Shown: positions 13,064-28,241, counted from the first letter of the stretch. The stretch is DNA of 28,241 nucleotides from a virus (IMGVR_UViG_2541047953_000002), one strand, 5' to 3'. Numbers and translations: made by a program. Notes: generated from the letters alone by a model not told the origin.

Positions 13064-13148
13064 GTAAGCGTAAACTGACCGCCGTATGTAGCCATCAGAC
13101 GAGAATTGGTAACTTAGACGCCCATCTGATATAGACGGACATCTAAGT

Positions 13149-13574
13149 ATGGAATTACAGGACTGGCGAAAAGAACCTCGTAAAAACTATTCGAATGAAT
13201 TCAAACTTCGTATGGTGGAACTGGCATCACAACCTGGAGCTTGTGTTGCACAGATTGCACGTGAAAATGGCGTCAATGATAATGTTATTTTCAAATGGCT
13301 CAGGCTCTGGCAGAACGAAGGGCGTGTTTCGCGGCGTCTTCCGGTAACGACCTCTTCTGACACTGGCGTTGAATTATTACCTGTAGAAATAACGCCGGAT
13401 GAGCAGAAAGAACCTGTGGCGGCCATTGCGCCGTCTTTATCCACTTCCACTCAGACCAGAGTCAGTGCCAGTTCCTGCAAGGTGGAATTCCGTCACGGTA
13501 ACATGACGCTGGAAAATCCATCGCCAGAGCTGCTCACAGTGTTGATCCGTGAACTGACCGGGAGGGGAAGATGA
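13149..13574 (+). CDS. IS66-family accessory protein TnpA (HTH, 141 aa)
   Basis: ORF track; first gene of the IS66 triad; 4-nt overlap with tnpB. Confidence 0.85.
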   Translation: MELQDWRKEPRKNYSNEFKLRMVELASQPGACVAQIARENGVNDNVIFKWLRLWQNEGRVSRRLPVTTSSDTGVELLPVEITPDEQKEPVAAIAPSLSTSTQTRVSASSCKVEFRHGNMTLENPSPELLTVLIRELTGRGR

Positions 13575-13921
13575 TCTCACTCCCATCAGGTACCCGTATC
13601 TGGCTCGTTGCCGGCGTTACCGATATGCGTAAATCCTTCAACGGACTGGGAGAACAGGTACAACATGTGCTGAATGATAATCCCTTCTCCGGTCACCTGT
13701 TTATCTTCCGTGGCCGACGGGGTGACACCGTCAAAATTCTTTGGGCTGATGCTGATGGTCTGTGCCTGTTCACCAAACGCCTGGAGGAAGGCCAGTTTAT
13801 CTGGCCTGCGGTACGTGACGGCAAGGTATCCATTACCCGCTCGCAACTGGCAATGCTCCTCGATAAGCTGGACTGGCGCCAGCCAAAAACATCCAGCCGT
13901 AACTCACTGACAATGTTGTAA
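13571..13921 (+). CDS. IS66-family TnpB (116 aa)
   Basis: Characteristic N-terminus PSGTRIWLVAGVTDMRKSFNGL. Confidence 0.9.
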   Translation: MISLPSGTRIWLVAGVTDMRKSFNGLGEQVQHVLNDNPFSGHLFIFRGRRGDTVKILWADADGLCLFTKRLEEGQFIWPAVRDGKVSITRSQLAMLLDKLDWRQPKTSSRNSLTML

Positions 13922-13951
13922 AAAACTCCTGACCGCATTATAAAAACGGTC

Positions 13952-15565
13952 ATGAGTCAGAAATACCTCATTCGCATCGCAGAGCTGGAAAGGTTGCTCT
14001 CTGAGCAGGCTGAAGCCCTCCGTCAGAAAGACCAGCAACTGAGTCTGGTTGAAGAGACGGAAGCCTTCCTGCGCTCTGCACTGACACGTGCCGAAGAAAA
14101 GATCGAAGAAGATGAACGGGAAATAGAACATCTGCGGGCTCAGATAGAAAAACTGCGCCGGATGCTGTTCGGTACCCGTTCTGAAAAACTGCGTCGTGAA
14201 GTTGAACTGGCTGAGGCTCTGCTGAAACAACGTGAACAGGACAGCGATCGTTACAGTGGGCGGGAAGACGATCCTCAGGTTCCCCGCCAGTTGCGACAGT
14301 CGCGCCATCGTCGTCCGTTACCGGCACACCTTCCCCGTGAAATACACCGCCTGGAGCCAGAAGAAAGCTGTTGCCCGGAGTGTGGCGGTGAGCTGGATTA
14401 TCTGGGGGAAGTCAGCGCTGAACAGCTGGAACTGGTGAGCAGTGCCCTGAAAGTGATCCGCACAGAACGGGTAAAAAAAGCCTGTACAAAATGTGACTGT
14501 ATTGTTGAAGCACCGGCGCCGTCCCGCCCGATAGAGCGTGGTATCGCGGGCCCCGGATTACTTGCCCGCGTGTTAACGGGAAAATACTGCGAACATCTGC
14601 CACTGTATCGTCAGAGTGAAATCTTTGCCCGCCAGGGTGTCGAACTGAGCCGGGCCTTACTCTCCAACTGGGTTGACGCGTGCTGCCAGTTAATGACACC
14701 GGTGAATGATGCCCTGTACCGTTATGTAATGAACACCCGCAAGGTTCACACTGATGACACACCGGTAAAGGTACTGGCACCGGGTCAGAAAAAGGCGAAA
14801 ACAGGGCGTATCTGGACGTATGTCCGGGATGATCGCAATGTGGGTTCGTCATCTCCTCCAGCGGTCTGGTTCGCGTACTCGCCGAACCGGCAGGGGAAAC
14901 ACCCGGAGCAACACCTCCGCCCCTTCCGGGGTATCCTGCAGGCGGATGCGTTCACAGGTTACGACAGGTTGTTCAGTGCAGAACGTGAAGGTGGTGCACT
15001 GACAGAAGTTGCGTGCTGGGCCCATGCCCGGCGAAAAATCCACGATGTATACATCAGCAGCAAAAGTGCGACGGCAGAAGAAGCCCTGAAGCGAATCAGT
15101 GAACTGTACGCCATCGAGGATGAAATACGGGGATTACCGGAGTCAGAGCGTCTTGCCGTCAGGCAGCAGCGAAGCAAAGTGTTACTGACGTCGCTGCATG
15201 AATGGATGGTGGAGAAGAATGGTACGCTGTCGAAAAAATCCAGACTGGGCGAAGCGTTCAGCTATGTACTGAATCAGTGGGATGCCCTCTGTTATTACAG
15301 TGATGACGGTCTGGCGGAGGCGGATAATAATGCTGCGGAAAGAGCGCTTCGTGCAGTCTGTCTCGGAAAGAAAAACTTTATGTTCTTTGGCAGCGATCAC
15401 GGCGGCGAGCGTGGAGCACTGTTGTACGGGCTGATCGGCACCTGCCGTCTGAACGGTATCGATCCGGAAGCGTATCTGCGCCATATCCTGAGCGTACTGC
15501 CGGAATGGCCTTCCAACCGAGTTGACGAACTCCTGCCATGGAACGTAGTACTCACCAATAAATAA
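13952..15565 (+). CDS. IS66-family transposase TnpC (537 aa)
   Basis: N-terminal coiled coil, CxxC...CxxC zinc finger, and conserved CWAHARRK / NNAAERALR motifs. Confidence 0.9.
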   Translation: MSQKYLIRIAELERLLSEQAEALRQKDQQLSLVEETEAFLRSALTRAEEKIEEDEREIEHLRAQIEKLRRMLFGTRSEKLRREVELAEALLKQREQDSDRYSGREDDPQVPRQLRQSRHRRPLPAHLPREIHRLEPEESCCPECGGELDYLGEVSAEQLELVSSALKVIRTERVKKACTKCDCIVEAPAPSRPIERGIAGPGLLARVLTGKYCEHLPLYRQSEIFARQGVELSRALLSNWVDACCQLMTPVNDALYRYVMNTRKVHTDDTPVKVLAPGQKKAKTGRIWTYVRDDRNVGSSSPPAVWFAYSPNRQGKHPEQHLRPFRGILQADAFTGYDRLFSAEREGGALTEVACWAHARRKIHDVYISSKSATAEEALKRISELYAIEDEIRGLPESERLAVRQQRSKVLLTSLHEWMVEKNGTLSKKSRLGEAFSYVLNQWDALCYYSDDGLAEADNNAAERALRAVCLGKKNFMFFGSDHGGERGALLYGLIGTCRLNGIDPEAYLRHILSVLPEWPSNRVDELLPWNVVLTNK

Positions 15566-15595
15566 GCGTCAATACGGTGCTCCGTTGACGCTTAC

Positions 15596-20070: not shown

Positions 20071-20404
20071 GAAAAATCCCCCAGAGAATTGTCTGGGGAC
20101 ATTTTAGAATGGTTCAAAGGGGACATTACAGCTTGGTGTTAACAATAGCCTGCTTCTCCGTGCCTTTCGGCACGTAAGAGGCTAACCTACATGTGTCTAG
20201 CATGAAATTGGCCTCAGATTAATGTTAAGCGTCTTGCAGGACGCGTAATGTTAACTGGGGCTTTTCTCTATCTGCCGTTGGTGTCCATGCCCGAGGCAGA
20301 TAGCCTCAAGCACCCGCAGTCATTCTACTTAACTAAGATTTCCCCGCAAACCGTTTTTGTCCAGCACAGTAAATATCCAACTAAACCAATGGAGTTCGCT
20401 GTAT

Positions 20405-20646: not shown

Positions 20647-20701
20647 GGTAATGGTGCCAACTTACTGATTTAGTGTATGATGGTGTTTTTGAGGTGCTCC
20701 C

Positions 20702-20977
20702 GTGGCTTCCATCTCCATCAGTTGTCCCTCCTGCTCAGCTACTGAAGGCGTGGTGCGTAACGGTAAAAGTACTGCCGGACATCAGCGCTATCTCTGCTCT
20801 CACTGCCGTAAAACATGGCAGCTACAGTTCACTTACACCGCCTCTCAGCCCGGTACACACCAGAAAATTATTGATATGGCCATGAATGGCGTCGGATGTC
20901 GCGCCAGTGCACGCATTATGGGCGTTGGCCTCAACACGATTTTACGACACTTAAAAAACTCAGGCCGCAGTCGGTAA
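20702..20977 (+). CDS. insA: IS1 InsA (91 aa)
   Basis: ORF track; matches IS1 InsA as recalled. Confidence 0.95.
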
Positions 20978-21399
20978 ACTCACGCATACAACCGGGCAGT
21001 GACGTCATTGTTTGCGCGGAAATGGACGAACAGTGGGGTTACGTCGGCGCTAAATCACGCCAGCGCTGGTTGTTTTACGCGTATGACAGGATACGGAGGA
21101 CGGTTGTGGCGCATGTATTCGGTGAACGCACGTTGGCCACGCTGGAGCGTCTTCTGAGCCTGCTGTCGGCCTTTGAGGTCGTGGTATGGATGACGGATGG
21201 CTGGCCGCTGTATGAATCACGCCTGAAGGGAGAACTGCACGTTATCAGCAAGCGATATACGCAGCGCATTGAGCGGCATAACCTGAATCTGAGGCAGCAT
21301 CTGGCAAGGCTGGGCAGGAAGTCACTGTCGTTCTCAAAATCGGTGGAGCTGCATGACAAAGTCATCGGGCATTATCTGAACATAAAACACTATCAGTAA
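20896..21399 (+). CDS. insB: IS1 InsB reading frame (expressed as InsAB' fusion by -1 frameshift)
   Basis: ORF track; matches IS1 InsB as recalled. Confidence 0.9.
20953..20959 (+). promoter_or_regulatory. IS1 programmed -1 frameshift slippery motif AAAAAAC
   Basis: A6C run at the insA/insB overlap (established IS1 mechanism). Confidence 0.7.
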
Positions 21400-21414
21400 G
21401 TTGGAGTCATTACC

Positions 21415-23554: not shown

Positions 23555-23661
23555 GTCATTGGCCCAGGCAGTCCAGTTATCCGGCGTTAATTGTTAACTG
23601 GTTAACGTCACCTGGAGGCACCAGGCACTGCATCACAAAATTCATTGTTGAGGACGCGATA

Positions 23662-23850
23662 ATGAAAACGTTATTACCAAACGTTAATACGTCTGAAGGT
23701 TGTTTTGAAATTGGTGTCACTATCAGTAACCCAGTATTTACTGAAGATGCCATTAACAAGAGAAAACAAGAACGGGAGCTATTAAATAAAATATGCATTG
23801 TTTCAATGCTGGCTCGTTTACGTCTGATGCCAAAAGGATGTGCACAATGA
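23662..23850 (+). CDS. dicB: Cell-division inhibitor DicB (62 aa)
   Basis: ATG with GAGGA at ~8 nt; sequence and length match DicB as recalled. Confidence 0.8.
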   Translation: MKTLLPNVNTSEGCFEIGVTISNPVFTEDAINKRKQERELLNKICIVSMLARLRLMPKGCAQ

Positions 23851-24038
23851 ATTCAGCATTTGTGCTTGTTCTGACAGTTTTTCTTGTTTCCGGAGAGCCA
23901 GTTGATATTGCAGTCAGTGTTCACAGGACAATGCAGGAGTGTATGACTGCAGCAACCGAACAGAAAATTCCCGGTAACTGTTACCCGGTCGATAAAGTTA
24001 TTCACCAGGATAATATCGAAATCCCGGCAGGTCTTTAA
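23847..24038 (+). CDS. ydfD: Small signal-peptide/membrane protein YdfD (63 aa)
   Basis: ATGA overlap with the dicB stop; AAGGA Shine-Dalgarno; hydrophobic N-terminus. Confidence 0.8.
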   Translation: MNSAFVLVLTVFLVSGEPVDIAVSVHRTMQECMTAATEQKIPGNCYPVDKVIHQDNIEIPAGL

Positions 24039-24130
24039 AACAGTTCCGTAATAAATATCCGGTTTCATTCTTATATGCCAGCAATGGCAGGGATTTGTTC
24101 ATCCTTAAATCTGTCATGAGGTTAAAACAA

Positions 24131-26602
24131 ATGAGTAAAGTCTTTATTTGCGCCGCTATTCCTGACGAACTGGCAACAAGGGAAGAAGGCGCTGTGGCTG
24201 TAGCCACAGCCATTGAAGCTGGCGACGAAGGCCGTGCTCGAGCAAAATTTCACTGGCAATTCCTGGAACATTATCCGGCTGCTCAGGACTGCGCTTATAA
24301 ATTTATTGTCTGCGAGGATAAACCTGGCATACCCCGCCCTGCCCTCGATTCATGGGATGCTGAATATATGCAGGAAAACCGCTGGGATGAGGAGTCTGCT
24401 TCTTTTGTCCCGGTTGAGACTGAATCCGATCCGATGAACGTCACTTTTGACAAGCTGGCCCCTGAAGTACAGAACGCTGTCATGGTTAAGTTCGACACAT
24501 GTGAAAACATCACCGTTGATATGGTTATTAGCGCACAGGAATTGTTGCAGGAAGACATGGCAACATTCGACGGACATATCGTTGAAGCGTTGATGAAAAT
24601 GCCAGAAGTTAACGCCATGTATCCGGAGCTTAAGTTGCACGCCATTGGGTGGGTTAAGCATAAATGTATTCCTGGTGCTAAATGGCCCGAAATTCAGGCA
24701 GAGATGCGCATCTGGAAAAAACGTCGCGAAGGTGAACGCAAGGAAACCGGAAAATACACGTCTGTTGTTGATCTCGCCCGCGCCAGAGCCAATCAACAGT
24801 ACACTGAAAATTCAACAGGAAAAATCAGCCCGGTCATTGCTGCCATTCATCGCGAATACAAGCAGACATGGAAAACACTGGATGACGAACTGGCCTACGC
24901 TCTCTGGCCTAGTGATGTGGATGCCGGAAACATTGACGGCAGCATCCATCGCTGGGCAAAAAAAGAAGTTATCGACAACGACCGCGAAGACTGGAAGCGT
25001 ATCTCGGCATCAATGCGCAAACAGCCTGATGCCCTTCGCTACGACCGCCAAACTATTTTTGGCCTTGTCCGTGAGCGTCCGATCGACATTCACAAAGATC
25101 CCGTAGCACTGAACAAATATATCTGCGAATACCTGACGACAAAGGGCGTGTTTGAGAATGAAGAAACAGACCTGGGCACTGTTGATGTTCTCCAGTCATC
25201 AGAAACACAAACTGATGCAGTGGAAACTGAGGTATCTGATATCCCAAAAAATGAAACCGCGCCGGAAGCTGAACCATCTGTAGAGCGTGAGGGGCCGTTC
25301 TATTTCCTCTTCGCAGATAAGGACGGAGAAAAATACGGTCGCGCAAACAAACTCTCTGGTCTGGATAAGGCACTGGCTGCTGGCGCCACTGAAATCACAA
25401 AAGAAGAATATTTTGCCCGAAAAAATGGCACATACACGGGCTTACCGCAAAATGTAGATACCGCTGAAGATTCAGAACAACCAGAGCCGATAAAAGTTAC
25501 CGCTGACGAAGTAAACAAAATTATGCAGGCAGCCAATATCAGCCAGCCTGACGCCGATAAGTTGCTTGCTGCATCACGTGGTGAATTTGTTGAAGGGATT
25601 AGTGACCCGAATGATCCGAAATGGGTTAAGGGGCTCCAGACCCGCGATTCTGTGAACCAGAACCAGCATGAATCGGAACGGAACTACCAAAAAGCGGAAC
25701 AAAACAGTCCAAATGCGTTACAAAACGAGCCAGAAACGAAACAGCCTGAACCAGTAGCGCAACAGGAAGTGGAAAAAGTCTGCACCGCCTGCGGTCAGAC
25801 CGGCGGCGGCAACTGCCCTGATTGTGGCGCGGTGATGGGCGACGCAACATACCAAGAAACATTCGATGAAGAGTATCAGGTTGAAGTTCAGGAAGATGAT
25901 CCGGAGGAAATGGAAGGCGCTGAACATCCACACAAGGAGAACACTGGCGGCAATCAGCATCACAATAGCGATAATGAAACTGGCGAGACGGCAGATCACC
26001 CAATTAAGGTGAACGGTCATCACGAAATCACATCCACCAGCAGGACGTGTGACCATCTAATGATCGACCTTGAAACCATGGGAAAAAATCCTGATGCCCC
26101 GATCATCTCAATAGGTGCAATATTTTTCGATCCGCAAACCGGAGATATGGGACCGGAATTTAGTAAGACTATCGATCTGGAAACTGCTGGCGGAGTCATT
26201 GATCGGGACACCATTAAATGGTGGCTTAAGCAATCACGCGAAGCGCAATCTGCCATTATGACCGATGAAATCCCGTTAGATGATGCACTGTTACAATTGC
26301 GAGAATTTATCGACGAAAACTCCGGTGAATTTTTTGTTCAGGTTTGGGGAAATGGAGCCAACTTCGACAACACGATTTTGCGCCGTTCATACGAACGGCA
26401 GGGGATCCCCTGCCCGTGGCGTTACTACAACGATCGCGATGTACGCACAATCGTTGAGCTGGGGAAAGCCATAGACTTCGATGCCAGAACGGCTATTCCA
26501 TTCGAAGGTGAGCGCCATAATGCACTTGATGACGCCCGTTACCAGGCAAAATACGTTTCAGTTATCTGGCAAAAACTGATCCCGAGTCAGGCTGATTCTT
26601 AA
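24131..26602 (+). CDS. Large multidomain protein (823 aa): N-terminal domain of unknown function, acidic low-complexity linker, C4 zinc ribbon, C-terminal DEDDh (DnaQ-like) 3'-5' exonuclease domain
   Basis: Exo motifs IDLETMG (I), GNGANFDNTIL (II), HNALDDARY (III); CTACGQTGGGNCPDCG zinc ribbon; GAGG Shine-Dalgarno; possibly the intact counterpart of K-12 ydfE (unverified). Confidence 0.85.
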   Translation: MSKVFICAAIPDELATREEGAVAVATAIEAGDEGRARAKFHWQFLEHYPAAQDCAYKFIVCEDKPGIPRPALDSWDAEYMQENRWDEESASFVPVETESDPMNVTFDKLAPEVQNAVMVKFDTCENITVDMVISAQELLQEDMATFDGHIVEALMKMPEVNAMYPELKLHAIGWVKHKCIPGAKWPEIQAEMRIWKKRREGERKETGKYTSVVDLARARANQQYTENSTGKISPVIAAIHREYKQTWKTLDDELAYALWPSDVDAGNIDGSIHRWAKKEVIDNDREDWKRISASMRKQPDALRYDRQTIFGLVRERPIDIHKDPVALNKYICEYLTTKGVFENEETDLGTVDVLQSSETQTDAVETEVSDIPKNETAPEAEPSVEREGPFYFLFADKDGEKYGRANKLSGLDKALAAGATEITKEEYFARKNGTYTGLPQNVDTAEDSEQPEPIKVTADEVNKIMQAANISQPDADKLLAASRGEFVEGISDPNDPKWVKGLQTRDSVNQNQHESERNYQKAEQNSPNALQNEPETKQPEPVAQQEVEKVCTACGQTGGGNCPDCGAVMGDATYQETFDEEYQVEVQEDDPEEMEGAEHPHKENTGGNQHHNSDNETGETADHPIKVNGHHEITSTSRTCDHLMIDLETMGKNPDAPIISIGAIFFDPQTGDMGPEFSKTIDLETAGGVIDRDTIKWWLKQSREAQSAIMTDEIPLDDALLQLREFIDENSGEFFVQVWGNGANFDNTILRRSYERQGIPCPWRYYNDRDVRTIVELGKAIDFDARTAIPFEGERHNALDDARYQAKYVSVIWQKLIPSQADS

Positions 26603-26674: not shown

Positions 26675-26926
26675 ATGAGCGAAGTAATCATGATTGTCTC
26701 TCCCGGCAAATGGGTATCCGAAGAGCAGTTAATTGCGCTGAAAGGAATAAAAAAAGGTACGTTAAAAAAGGCCCGGGAAAAATCGTTTATGGAAGGAAGG
26801 GAATATAAGCATGTCGCTCATGACGGTATGCCATGGGATAACAGTCCATGCTTTTACAACCTGGAAGAAATTGATCGCTGGATTGAGCGCCAGGCATCAG
26901 CGAGACCAAGACGTCATCTTACTTGA
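26675..26926 (+). CDS. Excisionase-like protein (83 aa)
   Basis: ORF track; GREY motif resembling lambda Xis; sits immediately upstream of the integrase. Confidence 0.65.
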   Translation: MSEVIMIVSPGKWVSEEQLIALKGIKKGTLKKAREKSFMEGREYKHVAHDGMPWDNSPCFYNLEEIDRWIERQASARPRRHLT

Positions 26927-26960
26927 CTAAAAGCCACACTAACTAATGAGAGAAGTTGAA

Positions 26961-28241
26961 ATGAAATATCCGACAGGCGTGGAAAACCATGGAGGGAAAT
27001 TACGTATCTGGTTTGTTTATAAAGGCGTAAGAGTCAGGGAAAATCTGGGGGTTCCTGACACAGCAAAAAACAGGCGCGTTGCAGGTGAACTACGCTCCTC
27101 TGTTTGTTACGCAATAAAAACTGGTGTTTTCGACTATGCAAAACAGTTTCCCTCCTCACGCAATCTGGAAAAATTTGGTGAGGCCCGACAAGATTTAACC
27201 ATAAAAGAACTGGCTGAAAAATTTCTGGCACTGAAAGAAACTGAAGTCGCCAAAACATCACTCAACACATACCGTGCCGTCATCAAAAATATCCTGAGCA
27301 TAATCGGTGAAAAAAATCTTGCCTCATCGATTAATAAAGAAAAATTACTGGAGGTTCGTAAAGAGTTACTGACTGGATACCAGATCCCCAAAAGTAACTA
27401 TATTGTTACACAACCAGGGAGATCGGCTGTAACTGTAAATAATTACATGACAAATCTTAACGCCGTGTTCCAGTTTGGTGTTGATAACGGTTACCTGGCA
27501 GATAATCCGTTTAAGGGGATCTCGCCATTAAAGGAATCAAGAACCATTCCGGATCCTCTTTCGCGGGAAGAATTTATCCGTCTTATCGATGCGTGCAGAA
27601 ATCAGCAAGCAAAAAATTTATGGTGTGTTTCTGTTTATACTGGCGTTCGCCCTGGTGAGCTGTGTGCACTTGGATGGGAGGACATAGATCTGAAAAATGG
27701 AACAATGATGATCAGGAGAAATTTAGCAAAAGACCGTTTCACGGTACCAAAAACACAGGCGGGAACCAATCGGGTCATTCATCTTATTAAGCCAGCAATC
27801 GACGCTCTCCGGAGTCAGATGACATTAACGAGACTGAGCAAAGAGCATATCATTGATGTTCACCTCAGAGAGTATGGCAGAACAGAAAAACAAAAATGCA
27901 CCTTTGTTTTTCAACCTGAAGTGTCAGCGAGAGTAAAAAATTATGGTGACCATTTTACCGTTGACTCAATAAGGCAGATGTGGGACGCAGCGATAAAACG
28001 TGCCGGACTCCGCCATCGAAAATCATATCAGTCGAGACATACTTATGCCTGCTGGTCGCTGACAGCTGGTGCTAACCCGGCATTTATAGCAAACCAGATG
28101 GGCCATGCAGATGCGCAAATGGTATTTCAGGTATACGGAAAATGGATGTCTGAAAACAATAATGCACAGGTAGCTTTGTTAAATACACAGTTAAGCGAGT
28201 TTGCCCCAATCATGCCCCATAACGAAGCAATGAAAAATTAA
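26961..28241 (+). CDS. intQ: Tyrosine recombinase / phage integrase (426 aa; alternative start at 26946)
   Basis: ORF track; C-terminal catalytic region with R...HxxR...Y pattern; stop codon is the last three bases of the window. Confidence 0.85.
   Translation: MKYPTGVENHGGKLRIWFVYKGVRVRENLGVPDTAKNRRVAGELRSSVCYAIKTGVFDYAKQFPSSRNLEKFGEARQDLTIKELAEKFLALKETEVAKTSLNTYRAVIKNILSIIGEKNLASSINKEKLLEVRKELLTGYQIPKSNYIVTQPGRSAVTVNNYMTNLNAVFQFGVDNGYLADNPFKGISPLKESRTIPDPLSREEFIRLIDACRNQQAKNLWCVSVYTGVRPGELCALGWEDIDLKNGTMMIRRNLAKDRFTVPKTQAGTNRVIHLIKPAIDALRSQMTLTRLSKEHIIDVHLREYGRTEKQKCTFVFQPEVSARVKNYGDHFTVDSIRQMWDAAIKRAGLRHRKSYQSRHTYACWSLTAGANPAFIANQMGHADAQMVFQVYGKWMSENNNAQVALLNTQLSEFAPIMPHNEAMKN

Follow-up and report, generated by a model that had tools for sequence, protein, structure and literature searches.

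The DNA stretch IMGVR_UViG_2541047953_000002 (28,241 nucleotides (nt) in full, referred to as the window below) is a Qin-type lambdoid prophage of Escherichia coli. Directly upstream of its excisionase and integrase genes it carries an intact ydfE-type gene, which codes for a protein of 823 amino acids (aa). Judged from its sequence, this protein is best described as a RecE paralog in which the catalytic domain has been exchanged. A RecE-type scaffold makes up about 640 of its 823 residues and is followed by a predicted 3'-5' exonuclease domain of the DEDDh type. In the loci that were classified, a gene for the annealing protein RecT is always found beside the version with a PD-(D/E)XK nuclease and never beside the DEDDh version, which argues that the DEDDh protein is not one half of a two-component exonuclease/annealase recombinase.

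Domain architecture of the 823-residue protein

The C-terminal domain (aa 641-823) matches Pfam family PF16473 (Rv2179c-like) at aa 642-813, covering model positions 2-177 of 177 (E=2.4e-67, 226.5 bits against a cut-off of 27). The only match in the PDB that is found by sequence is T4 DexA (8KEL/8KEN; E=1.5e-6, 26% identity). All three exonuclease motifs are present: Exo I (D-x-E) is D646-L-E648, the acidic residue of Exo II is D746 in NGANFD, with the spacing N-x3-FD, and Exo III (H-x4-D, the "h" subtype) extends from H796 to D801. These five residues (D646, E648, D746, H796 and D801) are conserved without exception when the domain is aligned with T4 DexA, gp34 from phage epsilon34, a homolog from phage 1720a-02 and five divergent fused relatives. 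In DexA, D7, E9, H186 and D191 are the counterparts of the catalytic residues D646, E648, H796 and D801. Among the residues that make tetramer contacts in DexA, S87 aligns to P715, and D90 is retained as D718. The original prediction, which was made from the sequence of the window, had placed a DEDDh exonuclease in the C-terminal ~190 residues. This holds, as do its D-x-E and H-x4-D motifs, but the second motif had been given as N-x2-FD, which is one residue short.

A structure prediction had been proposed as a check on the DEDDh fold. An AlphaFold2 (AF2) model of aa 396-823 shows a predicted local distance difference test score (pLDDT) of 70-89 in the exonuclease domain; the C-terminal model is moderately confident and was built on a shallow alignment. 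When searched with Foldseek, the model matches RNase T, Orn, REXO2, Cap18 and the exonuclease domain of DinG with a probability of 1.0 and a target-normalised template modelling (TM) score of ~0.6. AF2 and Foldseek together recover an RNase H-like alpha/beta fold for the domain. A search with PADLOC returned one generic CRISPR-associated DEDDh match (E=1.8e-5). By these sequence features, the C-terminal domain is classified as a DexA/Rv2179c-type DEDDh exonuclease with a complete predicted two-metal active site. From its family membership, it is predicted to remove nucleotides from 3'-OH ends in a Mg2+-dependent reaction. The substrate is most likely DNA, because the nearest characterized relative is the T4 DNA exonuclease DexA and because the scaffold otherwise carries a DNA exonuclease.

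The scaffold (aa 1-640) begins with two folded domains, which were modelled in aa 1-400 and are parted by low-confidence linkers. Domain A (aa 1-205) consists of an alpha/beta subdomain (1-95) and a helical subdomain (~105-205). Domain B (aa 245-340) is all-helical and is shared with RecE (~262-345). No significant pairwise similarity of domain A to RecE was found. However, a comparison of strictly non-overlapping family sets by hhalign matched domain A to the RecE N-domain (RecE 11-214) with 83% probability (E=9e-6, 178 columns), and both families were joined via intermediates in iterated searches. Domain A is considered a putative remote homolog of the RecE N-domain (Pfam Exonuc_VIII). Proteins of the YdfE family are also recorded with two newer Pfam families, YdfE_N and YdfE_C, which probably correspond to the region of domain A. 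The N-terminal ~330 residues, for which the original prediction could not recognize any motif, thus hold two domains that are modelled as folded with high confidence and are related to the N-terminal region of RecE.

Further downstream, aa 262-627 align by BLASTP to residues 278-592 of Rac RecE (39% identity, E=3e-62), with 80-90% identity around a conserved motif and a zinc ribbon. The NCBIfam RecE equivalog NF007259 scores 281.6 bits against a cut-off of 1269 and covers only aa 246-623 (model positions 271-600). RecE homology stops within the second long linker (aa 579-640), at aa 627, which corresponds to RecE 592. No match to RecE 600-866, the PD-(D/E)XK 5'-3' nuclease, was found in the 823-residue protein, which has the DEDDh domain in its place. 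The original prediction had set the protein apart from RecE, and this had to be revised for the scaffold.

The region from aa 341 to 640 is mostly predicted to be disordered, with a pLDDT below 50 over most of its length. Islands of low to moderate confidence are a few short helices (~405-482), the conserved motif (474-506) and the zinc ribbon. The motif, DADKLLAASRGEFVEGISDPNDPKWVKGLQTRD, characterizes the RecE/YdfE scaffold family as a whole and occurs together with all C-terminal types. Its consensus is LAAxRGEFVEGISDPxDPKW, in which G489-I-S-D-P-x-D-x-K-W498 is invariant among 12 divergent family members. The zinc ribbon and its conserved tail (VMGDATYQETF) are shared with RecE. A zinc ribbon had been predicted, but with a spacer of 10 residues between the two CxxC pairs, while the actual spacer has 7 residues (C551, C554, C562, C565). 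The acidic/Gln-rich linkers which had been described are also found, with a net charge of -16 over residues 570-640.

The window copy was compared with four divergent E. coli copies. Overall, the number of synonymous substitutions per synonymous site (dS) is 0.13-0.39, and it reaches 0.68 in the exonuclease domain. Indels were not found among the compared copies. As evident from the dN/dS ratios (nonsynonymous to synonymous substitution rates; Table 1), every folded part of the protein is under purifying selection. The two long linkers have ratios of 0.5-0.8 in most comparisons.

Nuclease type and the presence of RecT

To cover the scaffold family, aa 1-640 were searched against 1.8 billion cluster representatives, followed by local domain mapping. 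The scaffold pairs with a YdfE-type or a RecE-type N-domain, and with a DEDDh domain, a PD-(D/E)XK domain or no recognizable nuclease. All four combinations of N-domain and nuclease (DEDDh, PD-(D/E)XK) exist, in addition to nuclease-less forms. When the conserved motif was used as a search pattern, 20 loci were retrieved, which are from Enterobacteriaceae (Escherichia, Shigella, Citrobacter, Enterobacter and Kluyvera) and from four otherwise-labelled metagenome bins.

A total of 37 loci were classified; in addition to the window and the 20 motif loci, these were annotated records from E. coli and phages and the contigs on which the representatives are encoded. Only RecT-family queries were used to score RecT, and further annealase families were ruled out only where annotation or Pfam tables existed. 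On this basis, a RecT gene is encoded downstream in 14 of 14 loci with a PD-(D/E)XK C-terminus, in none of 18 loci with a DEDDh C-terminus, and in none of four loci that lack a nuclease. These counts include near-duplicates and are not phylogenetically corrected; they represent ~7 divergent DEDDh lineages and ~10 divergent PD-(D/E)XK lineages, with no exception. In the PD-(D/E)XK loci, the RecT-family gene overlaps the nuclease gene or starts 0-17 nt after it. The DEDDh loci continue with xis and int. Two more loci agree with this pattern. One is a short contig with PD-(D/E)XK followed by RecT (L015). In the other, from Kluyvera genomosp. 3 (L043, 4774-8300), a frameshift separates the RecE-type scaffold from the PD-(D/E)XK domain, and the subsequent RecT gene is in two pieces. 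This RecET-like module appears to decay as a whole.

The annotation of the complete Qin prophage of E. coli strain cq9 contains no annealing-protein gene from any family. The same is true of the phage records PhiR42_1 and 813R8, both of which have the exonuclease gene (that of PhiR42_1, from ECOR13, is 99.9% identical), and of four divergent prophages that occupy other attachment sites. There is also none in the early-left region of the window. The absence of a RecT/Bet-like partner, which had been noted for the prophage itself, is a common trait of all 18 DEDDh loci. Judged by its fold, the DEDDh domain would act from 3' ends, so that 5'-3' resection leaving 3' tails is not expected. RecT-type annealases (RecET, Red) use 3' tails.

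A natural recE::ydfE hybrid (P0128; L014, 6001-8418) combines both versions. Over residues 1-360 it is 100% identical to Rac RecE, and over residues 641-805 it shares 98-100% identity with the DEDDh domain from the window. The crossover is within the shared middle region. The locus has a Rac-type early region (sieB, kilR, ydaE), which is directly followed by xis-int; recT, ralR and rcbA are missing. Nuclease-less proteins are exemplified by P0126 (702 aa; L020-L022), in which YdfE_N and YdfE_C are followed by ~250 C-terminal residues that match no Pfam family or nuclease. Their loci fill the same slot between kilR and xis-int, without RecT. Proteins of this type are probably the "RecE-2" class that has been described previously (PMC12315714).

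Genomic setting and distribution

The positions of all features are listed in Table 1. The gene order is dicB - ydfD - exonuclease gene - xis - int, which is consistent with the original assignment of the gene to the slot where Rac carries recE/recT. A cell-division inhibitor (dicB with ydfD, or kilR) is the upstream neighbor in most of the loci examined. A promoter-like site on the plus strand between ydfD and the exonuclease gene was looked for but was not found. Strain cq9 has a 100% identical gene, which RefSeq annotates with the same ends and names "exonuclease" (WP_000048342.1).

Table 1. Features of the exonuclease gene and its surroundings in the window. Ranges of dN/dS are from the comparison of the window copy with four divergent E. 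coli copies.
Feature	Position	Strand	Evidence or remark	dN/dS
Whole coding sequence, intact ydfE-type "exonuclease"	24131..26602	+	ATG at 24131, stop codon 26600-26602; single uninterrupted open reading frame (ORF), 823 codons plus stop; PHROG 2082 matched end to end	
GAGG Shine-Dalgarno sequence	24118..24121	+	9 nt 5' of the ATG; direct sequence reading	
Domain A, aa 1-205	24131..24745	+	AF2 pLDDT >95; hhalign to RecE N-domain	0.07-0.10
Domain B, aa 245-340	24863..25150	+	pLDDT ~97; BLASTP; hhalign probability 100%	~0.11-0.14 in three of four comparisons; 0.41 in L011, where dS is low
Disordered acidic/Thr-rich linker, aa 341-395	25151..25315	+	pLDDT <50	0.5-0.6 in three of four comparisons
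Middle region, aa 396-545				~0.2
Conserved motif, aa 474-506	25550..25648	+	signature of the scaffold family	
Zinc ribbon C551-x2-C554-x7-C562-x2-C565 and conserved tail	25781..25864	+	shared with RecE	0.07-0.19
Acidic disordered linker, aa 579-640	25865..26050	+	pLDDT ~30	0.56-0.83
Predicted DEDDh 3'-5' exonuclease domain, aa 641-823	26051..26599	+	Pfam PF16473, DexA match, invariant residues, Foldseek, dN/dS	0.11-0.23
Catalytic codon D646	26066-26068	+		
Catalytic codon E648	26072-26074	+		
Catalytic codon D746	26366-26368	+		
Catalytic codon H796	26516-26518	+		
Catalytic codon D801	26531-26533	+		
Junction of the 3,106-bp deletion relative to cq9	23578..23579		blastn of the window against the cq9 prophage (L001)	
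dicB, cell-division inhibitor, upstream in the same operon	23662..23850	+	Pfam DicB, E=1.9e-40; annotated in the near-identical strain cq9	
ydfD, DUF1482 lysis protein, directly 5' of the exonuclease gene	23847..24038	+	Pfam DUF1482, E=3.9e-26	
xis, excisionase, directly 3', 72 nt after the exonuclease gene	26675..26926	+	Pfam DUF1233 (putative excisionase), E=1.6e-31; annotation	
int, integrase ORF	26946..28241	+	RefSeq start corresponds to 26961	
Chi sites (GCTGGTGG)	8675, 12657, 12709, 15782, 15839, 22208, 26034		one inside the exonuclease gene, on the minus strand	

Full-length copies (at least 80% coverage) are encoded in 3537 of 5426 complete E. coli genomes, and a single protein cluster at 90% identity has 23,183 member sequences, with a representative of 823 aa. 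The suggestion that K-12 ydfE is a copy disrupted by an insertion sequence (IS) proved correct: the K-12 gene is cut after nt 767, and an IS2 remnant and a truncated integrase follow.

Seven Chi sites (GCTGGTGG) occur in the window, compared to 0.77 expected from shuffled sequences. This excess fits the class of Chi-rich lambdoid phages without a Rec module (PMC12315714).

Compared to the cq9 prophage, the window has lost 3,106 bp and is otherwise 99.9% identical. The deletion affects the 5' part of a replication gene, a ydaT-like gene, dicC, dicA, ydfA/B/C and the dicF region. It removed the native promoter and the repressor of the operon, and dicB is now only 84 nt from the junction. An Rfam scan of the window did not find the DicF small RNA (sRNA). 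Strain CFSAN051542 is annotated with an identical deleted layout. Two insertions are also seen relative to cq9. An IS66-family element of 2.5 kb (13064-15594), which codes for three ORFs (141, 116 and 537 aa), is inserted in ydfU (DUF968), and an IS1 (20647-21412) has an InsB-like ORF at 20896-21399. On the minus strand at 20144-20315, Rfam detects a sok antitoxin RNA (104 bits, E=2e-23). By coordinate mapping, it is ~3.3 kb from the annotated hokD and is located between an ISNCY transposase fragment and a pseudogene. The match possibly marks a second hok/sok-type locus that lacks annotation.

Proposed role and comparison with known systems

In a lysogen, the Qin dicB operon is repressed by DicA, and dicB is toxic. 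Because the exonuclease gene is the last in the early-left operon (dicB-ydfD-exo-xis-int), the protein would be made upon induction or infection and not in the resting lysogen. With moderate confidence, we propose that it is an exonuclease which is expressed on induction and acts on DNA 3' ends without an annealing protein, trimming these ends for host pathways. How it would work is the least certain part of this proposal. The scaffold may bring the nuclease to DNA ends or to a partner in host DNA metabolism. The nuclease would then trim the 3' ends of linear or branched DNA during lytic development, and such trimming could shape replication and recombination intermediates for host pathways. 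A Chi-rich phage type without a recombinase of its own presumably depends on host RecBCD and RecA.

Several points weigh against this proposal. Linear-linear recombination is boosted by full-length RecE but not by its nuclease domain on its own (PMC11611040); that the scaffold targets DNA ends is a guess drawn from this single result. An informative solved or viral structural relative of the scaffold was looked for but was not found. DnaQ-type 3'-5' exonucleases usually antagonize recombination (PMC12315714), so that a pro-recombination role is not obvious. Rv2179c, from which the Pfam family originates, is described there as an exoribonuclease, and RNA is a possible substrate. The window copy, though intact, may be silent after the loss of the promoter region. 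The scope of the RecT scoring, as given above, has also to be considered. In open-access papers and preprints, we found no biochemical or genetic data on the protein or its full-length relatives.

A wider reading is possible but doubtful: the RecE-type N-terminal region might be an autonomous targeting module which is independent of the nuclease that it carries (5'-3', 3'-5' or none), and the DEDDh version might represent a separate, annealase-independent activity of lambdoid phages for the processing of DNA ends. In that case, the GISDPxDPKW motif and the zinc ribbon would be handles for binding a host partner. It is a possibility that 3'-5' resection then blocks the loading of RecBCD or enables the annealing of 5' overhangs; another is counter-defence. 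If this reading were true, the DEDDh version, found in about two thirds of E. coli genomes, would be a separate DNA-end-processing activity.

The original prediction had also raised the idea of an anti-host or anti-phage effector. This is not favored: the gene is at the end of a repressed early-left operon behind the toxic dicB, and no promoter-like site is directly upstream. W152 and D169, which are reported to read 5-hydroxymethylcytosine (5hmC) DNA in DexA, align to Y766 and A780 (the aromatic residue is kept at the first position; the second is in a poorly aligned loop, so that its alignment is uncertain). As an anti-phage nuclease of the "HREX" kind, the prophage-encoded protein would degrade the DNA of superinfecting phages, perhaps modified DNA, as has been reported for EcD. 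EcD, a stand-alone DexA homolog from E. coli, digests 5hmC DNA and protects against T4 from a plasmid (PMC12153337). The C-terminal domain belongs to the same DexA-related superfamily, and many degraded prophages, the window among them, have retained an intact copy of the gene. Still, we regard this as unlikely: in addition to the operon position and the DexA residues already mentioned, EcD is a different, stand-alone protein (the primers show that it starts with MIDTET and ends with TIPETY), the gene has been lost in K-12, and the scaffold is shared with a recombination nuclease. The anti-host variant is a nuclease which, during lytic growth, degrades host DNA fragments from their 3' ends to supply nucleotide pools, or harms the host otherwise. 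T4 DexA, the closest characterized relative, is indeed annotated in host DNA degradation (PMC12153337), and the gene is co-transcribed with the host-killing dicB and ydfD, or with kilR. However, bulk degradation would not need an elaborate, conserved scaffold of 640 residues that is shared with RecE, and stand-alone versions of 180 aa exist in other phages. Temperate lambdoid phages are not known to degrade host DNA. This variant is considered quite unlikely.

A 3'-5' exoribonuclease like Rv2179c, which would trim or degrade RNAs (e.g., early-left transcripts, host sRNAs or RNA primers), is suggested by the name of PF16473, by many database records that say "3'-5' exoribonuclease", and by the top Foldseek matches (RNase T, Orn, REXO2). 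The database names are, however, carried over from the family name, RNase T acts also on DNA, and the top structural matches are DNA complexes. The sole solved relative by sequence (DexA) and the scaffold partner in the paralogs are DNA exonucleases, and the stand-alone homolog from epsilon34 is encoded between genes for a single-stranded DNA-binding protein (SSB) and Abc2, beside a putative recombination gene. An RNA-directed role is considered unlikely. We give still less credence to a classical recombination module in which the protein is the nuclease half and its annealing partner comes from another part of the prophage or from a different prophage. The place of the gene corresponds to that of recE, Rac RecT is often present in the same genome, and E. 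ruysiae carries a RecE-type and a DEDDh-type locus together (L025, L026). In epsilon34, the 56%-identical stand-alone homolog is inside a Rec module, beside SSB and a putative recombination protein (PMC12315714). This is opposed by the all-or-none distribution of adjacent RecT genes, by the loss of recT from the natural hybrid, and by the 3'-5' polarity, which is wrong for making 3' tails. Moreover, int-proximal DnaQ-type genes have been excluded from Rec modules by the authors of that study (PMC12315714). Finally, the gene might be a decaying remnant without a current function, given that the prophage is cryptic and IS-ridden and that K-12 has a pseudogene. This can practically be dismissed. 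It is ruled out by the selection data, with dN/dS ~0.1-0.2 in the folded parts in most comparisons and no indels despite the divergence of the copies, and it does not fit the number of genomes with full-length copies or the size of the protein cluster.

The protein does not represent a new kind of system. It is among the commonest uncharacterized E. coli prophage proteins, also in enterohemorrhagic strains, and has already been catalogued: as "exonuclease" in PHROG 2082, by the Pfam families YdfE_N/YdfE_C and Rv2179c-like, and under RefSeq names. That lambdoid phages have DnaQ-type nuclease genes close to int has been mentioned briefly before (PMC12315714). We found no prior description as a RecE paralog with a swapped nuclease, nor of the link between nuclease type and RecT, in open-access papers and preprints. 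As originally proposed, a characterized protein with the same architecture was not found in our database and literature search.

RecET is a workhorse of recombineering, yet no function is known for the RecE N-terminal region of 600 residues apart from an improvement of linear-linear recombination. The gene described here demonstrates that this scaffold is mobile and that it also occurs naturally with a nuclease of the opposite polarity. In the loci examined, the presence of RecT follows the nuclease type without exception. The natural hybrids, the conserved motif and the zinc ribbon, which can be mutated, offer an experimental handle on the role of the scaffold. The gene also raises the question of what use a 3'-5' exonuclease without an annealase is to a lambdoid phage. 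A defined activity would improve many annotations that now read "exonuclease", "exodeoxyribonuclease VIII" or "3'-5' exoribonuclease".

Among known systems, M. tuberculosis Rv2179c gave its name to the Pfam family that the C-terminal domain matches. It differs in being a small bacterial exoribonuclease without scaffold or phage context, and a direct sequence search of the PDB (E<=1) did not find it. T4 DexA (exonuclease A) is the closest solved sequence relative of the domain, with all five catalytic residues aligned. It differs in being a stand-alone protein of 227 aa from a virulent phage, with extra loops and without a RecE-type scaffold. EcD/"HREX" (PMC12153337) is likewise a DexA-related DEDDh exonuclease in E. 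coli genomes. It is, however, a stand-alone protein with other termini and another expression context, and the reported 5hmC determinants seem not to be conserved in full in the 823-residue protein, the aromatic residue being kept.

The systems from lambdoid phages are closer. Epsilon34 gp34, a DnaQ-type nuclease from a P22-like Rec module, has 56% identity to aa 640-816, belongs to the same domain family and is also encoded in a lambdoid early-left operon. This protein from a Salmonella phage has only 182 aa, lacks the scaffold and is encoded between the genes for SSB and Abc2, whereas the gene of the 823-residue protein lacks neighbors of this kind and lies next to int. DnaQ-type nucleases of Rec modules, such as that from epsilon34, have been accepted, and "sporadic" DnaQ-type genes near int have been set aside (PMC12315714). 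The "RecE-2" proteins (PMC12315714) and other nuclease-less scaffold proteins such as P0126 share the scaffold (YdfE_N/YdfE_C), the position after kilR and before xis-int, and the lack of RecT. They have no recognizable nuclease domain, in contrast to the complete DEDDh domain predicted here. RecE from Rac (exodeoxyribonuclease VIII) differs by its own catalytic domain (PD-(D/E)XK, 5'-3', compared to DEDDh, 3'-5') and by an adjacent, translationally coupled recT, which the 823-residue gene lacks. It occupies the same early-left slot, after a cell-division inhibitor gene and before xis-int, and the architecture that precedes its nuclease appears homologous throughout, with domain A (remote), domain B, the GISDPxDPKW motif, the zinc ribbon and the acidic linkers.

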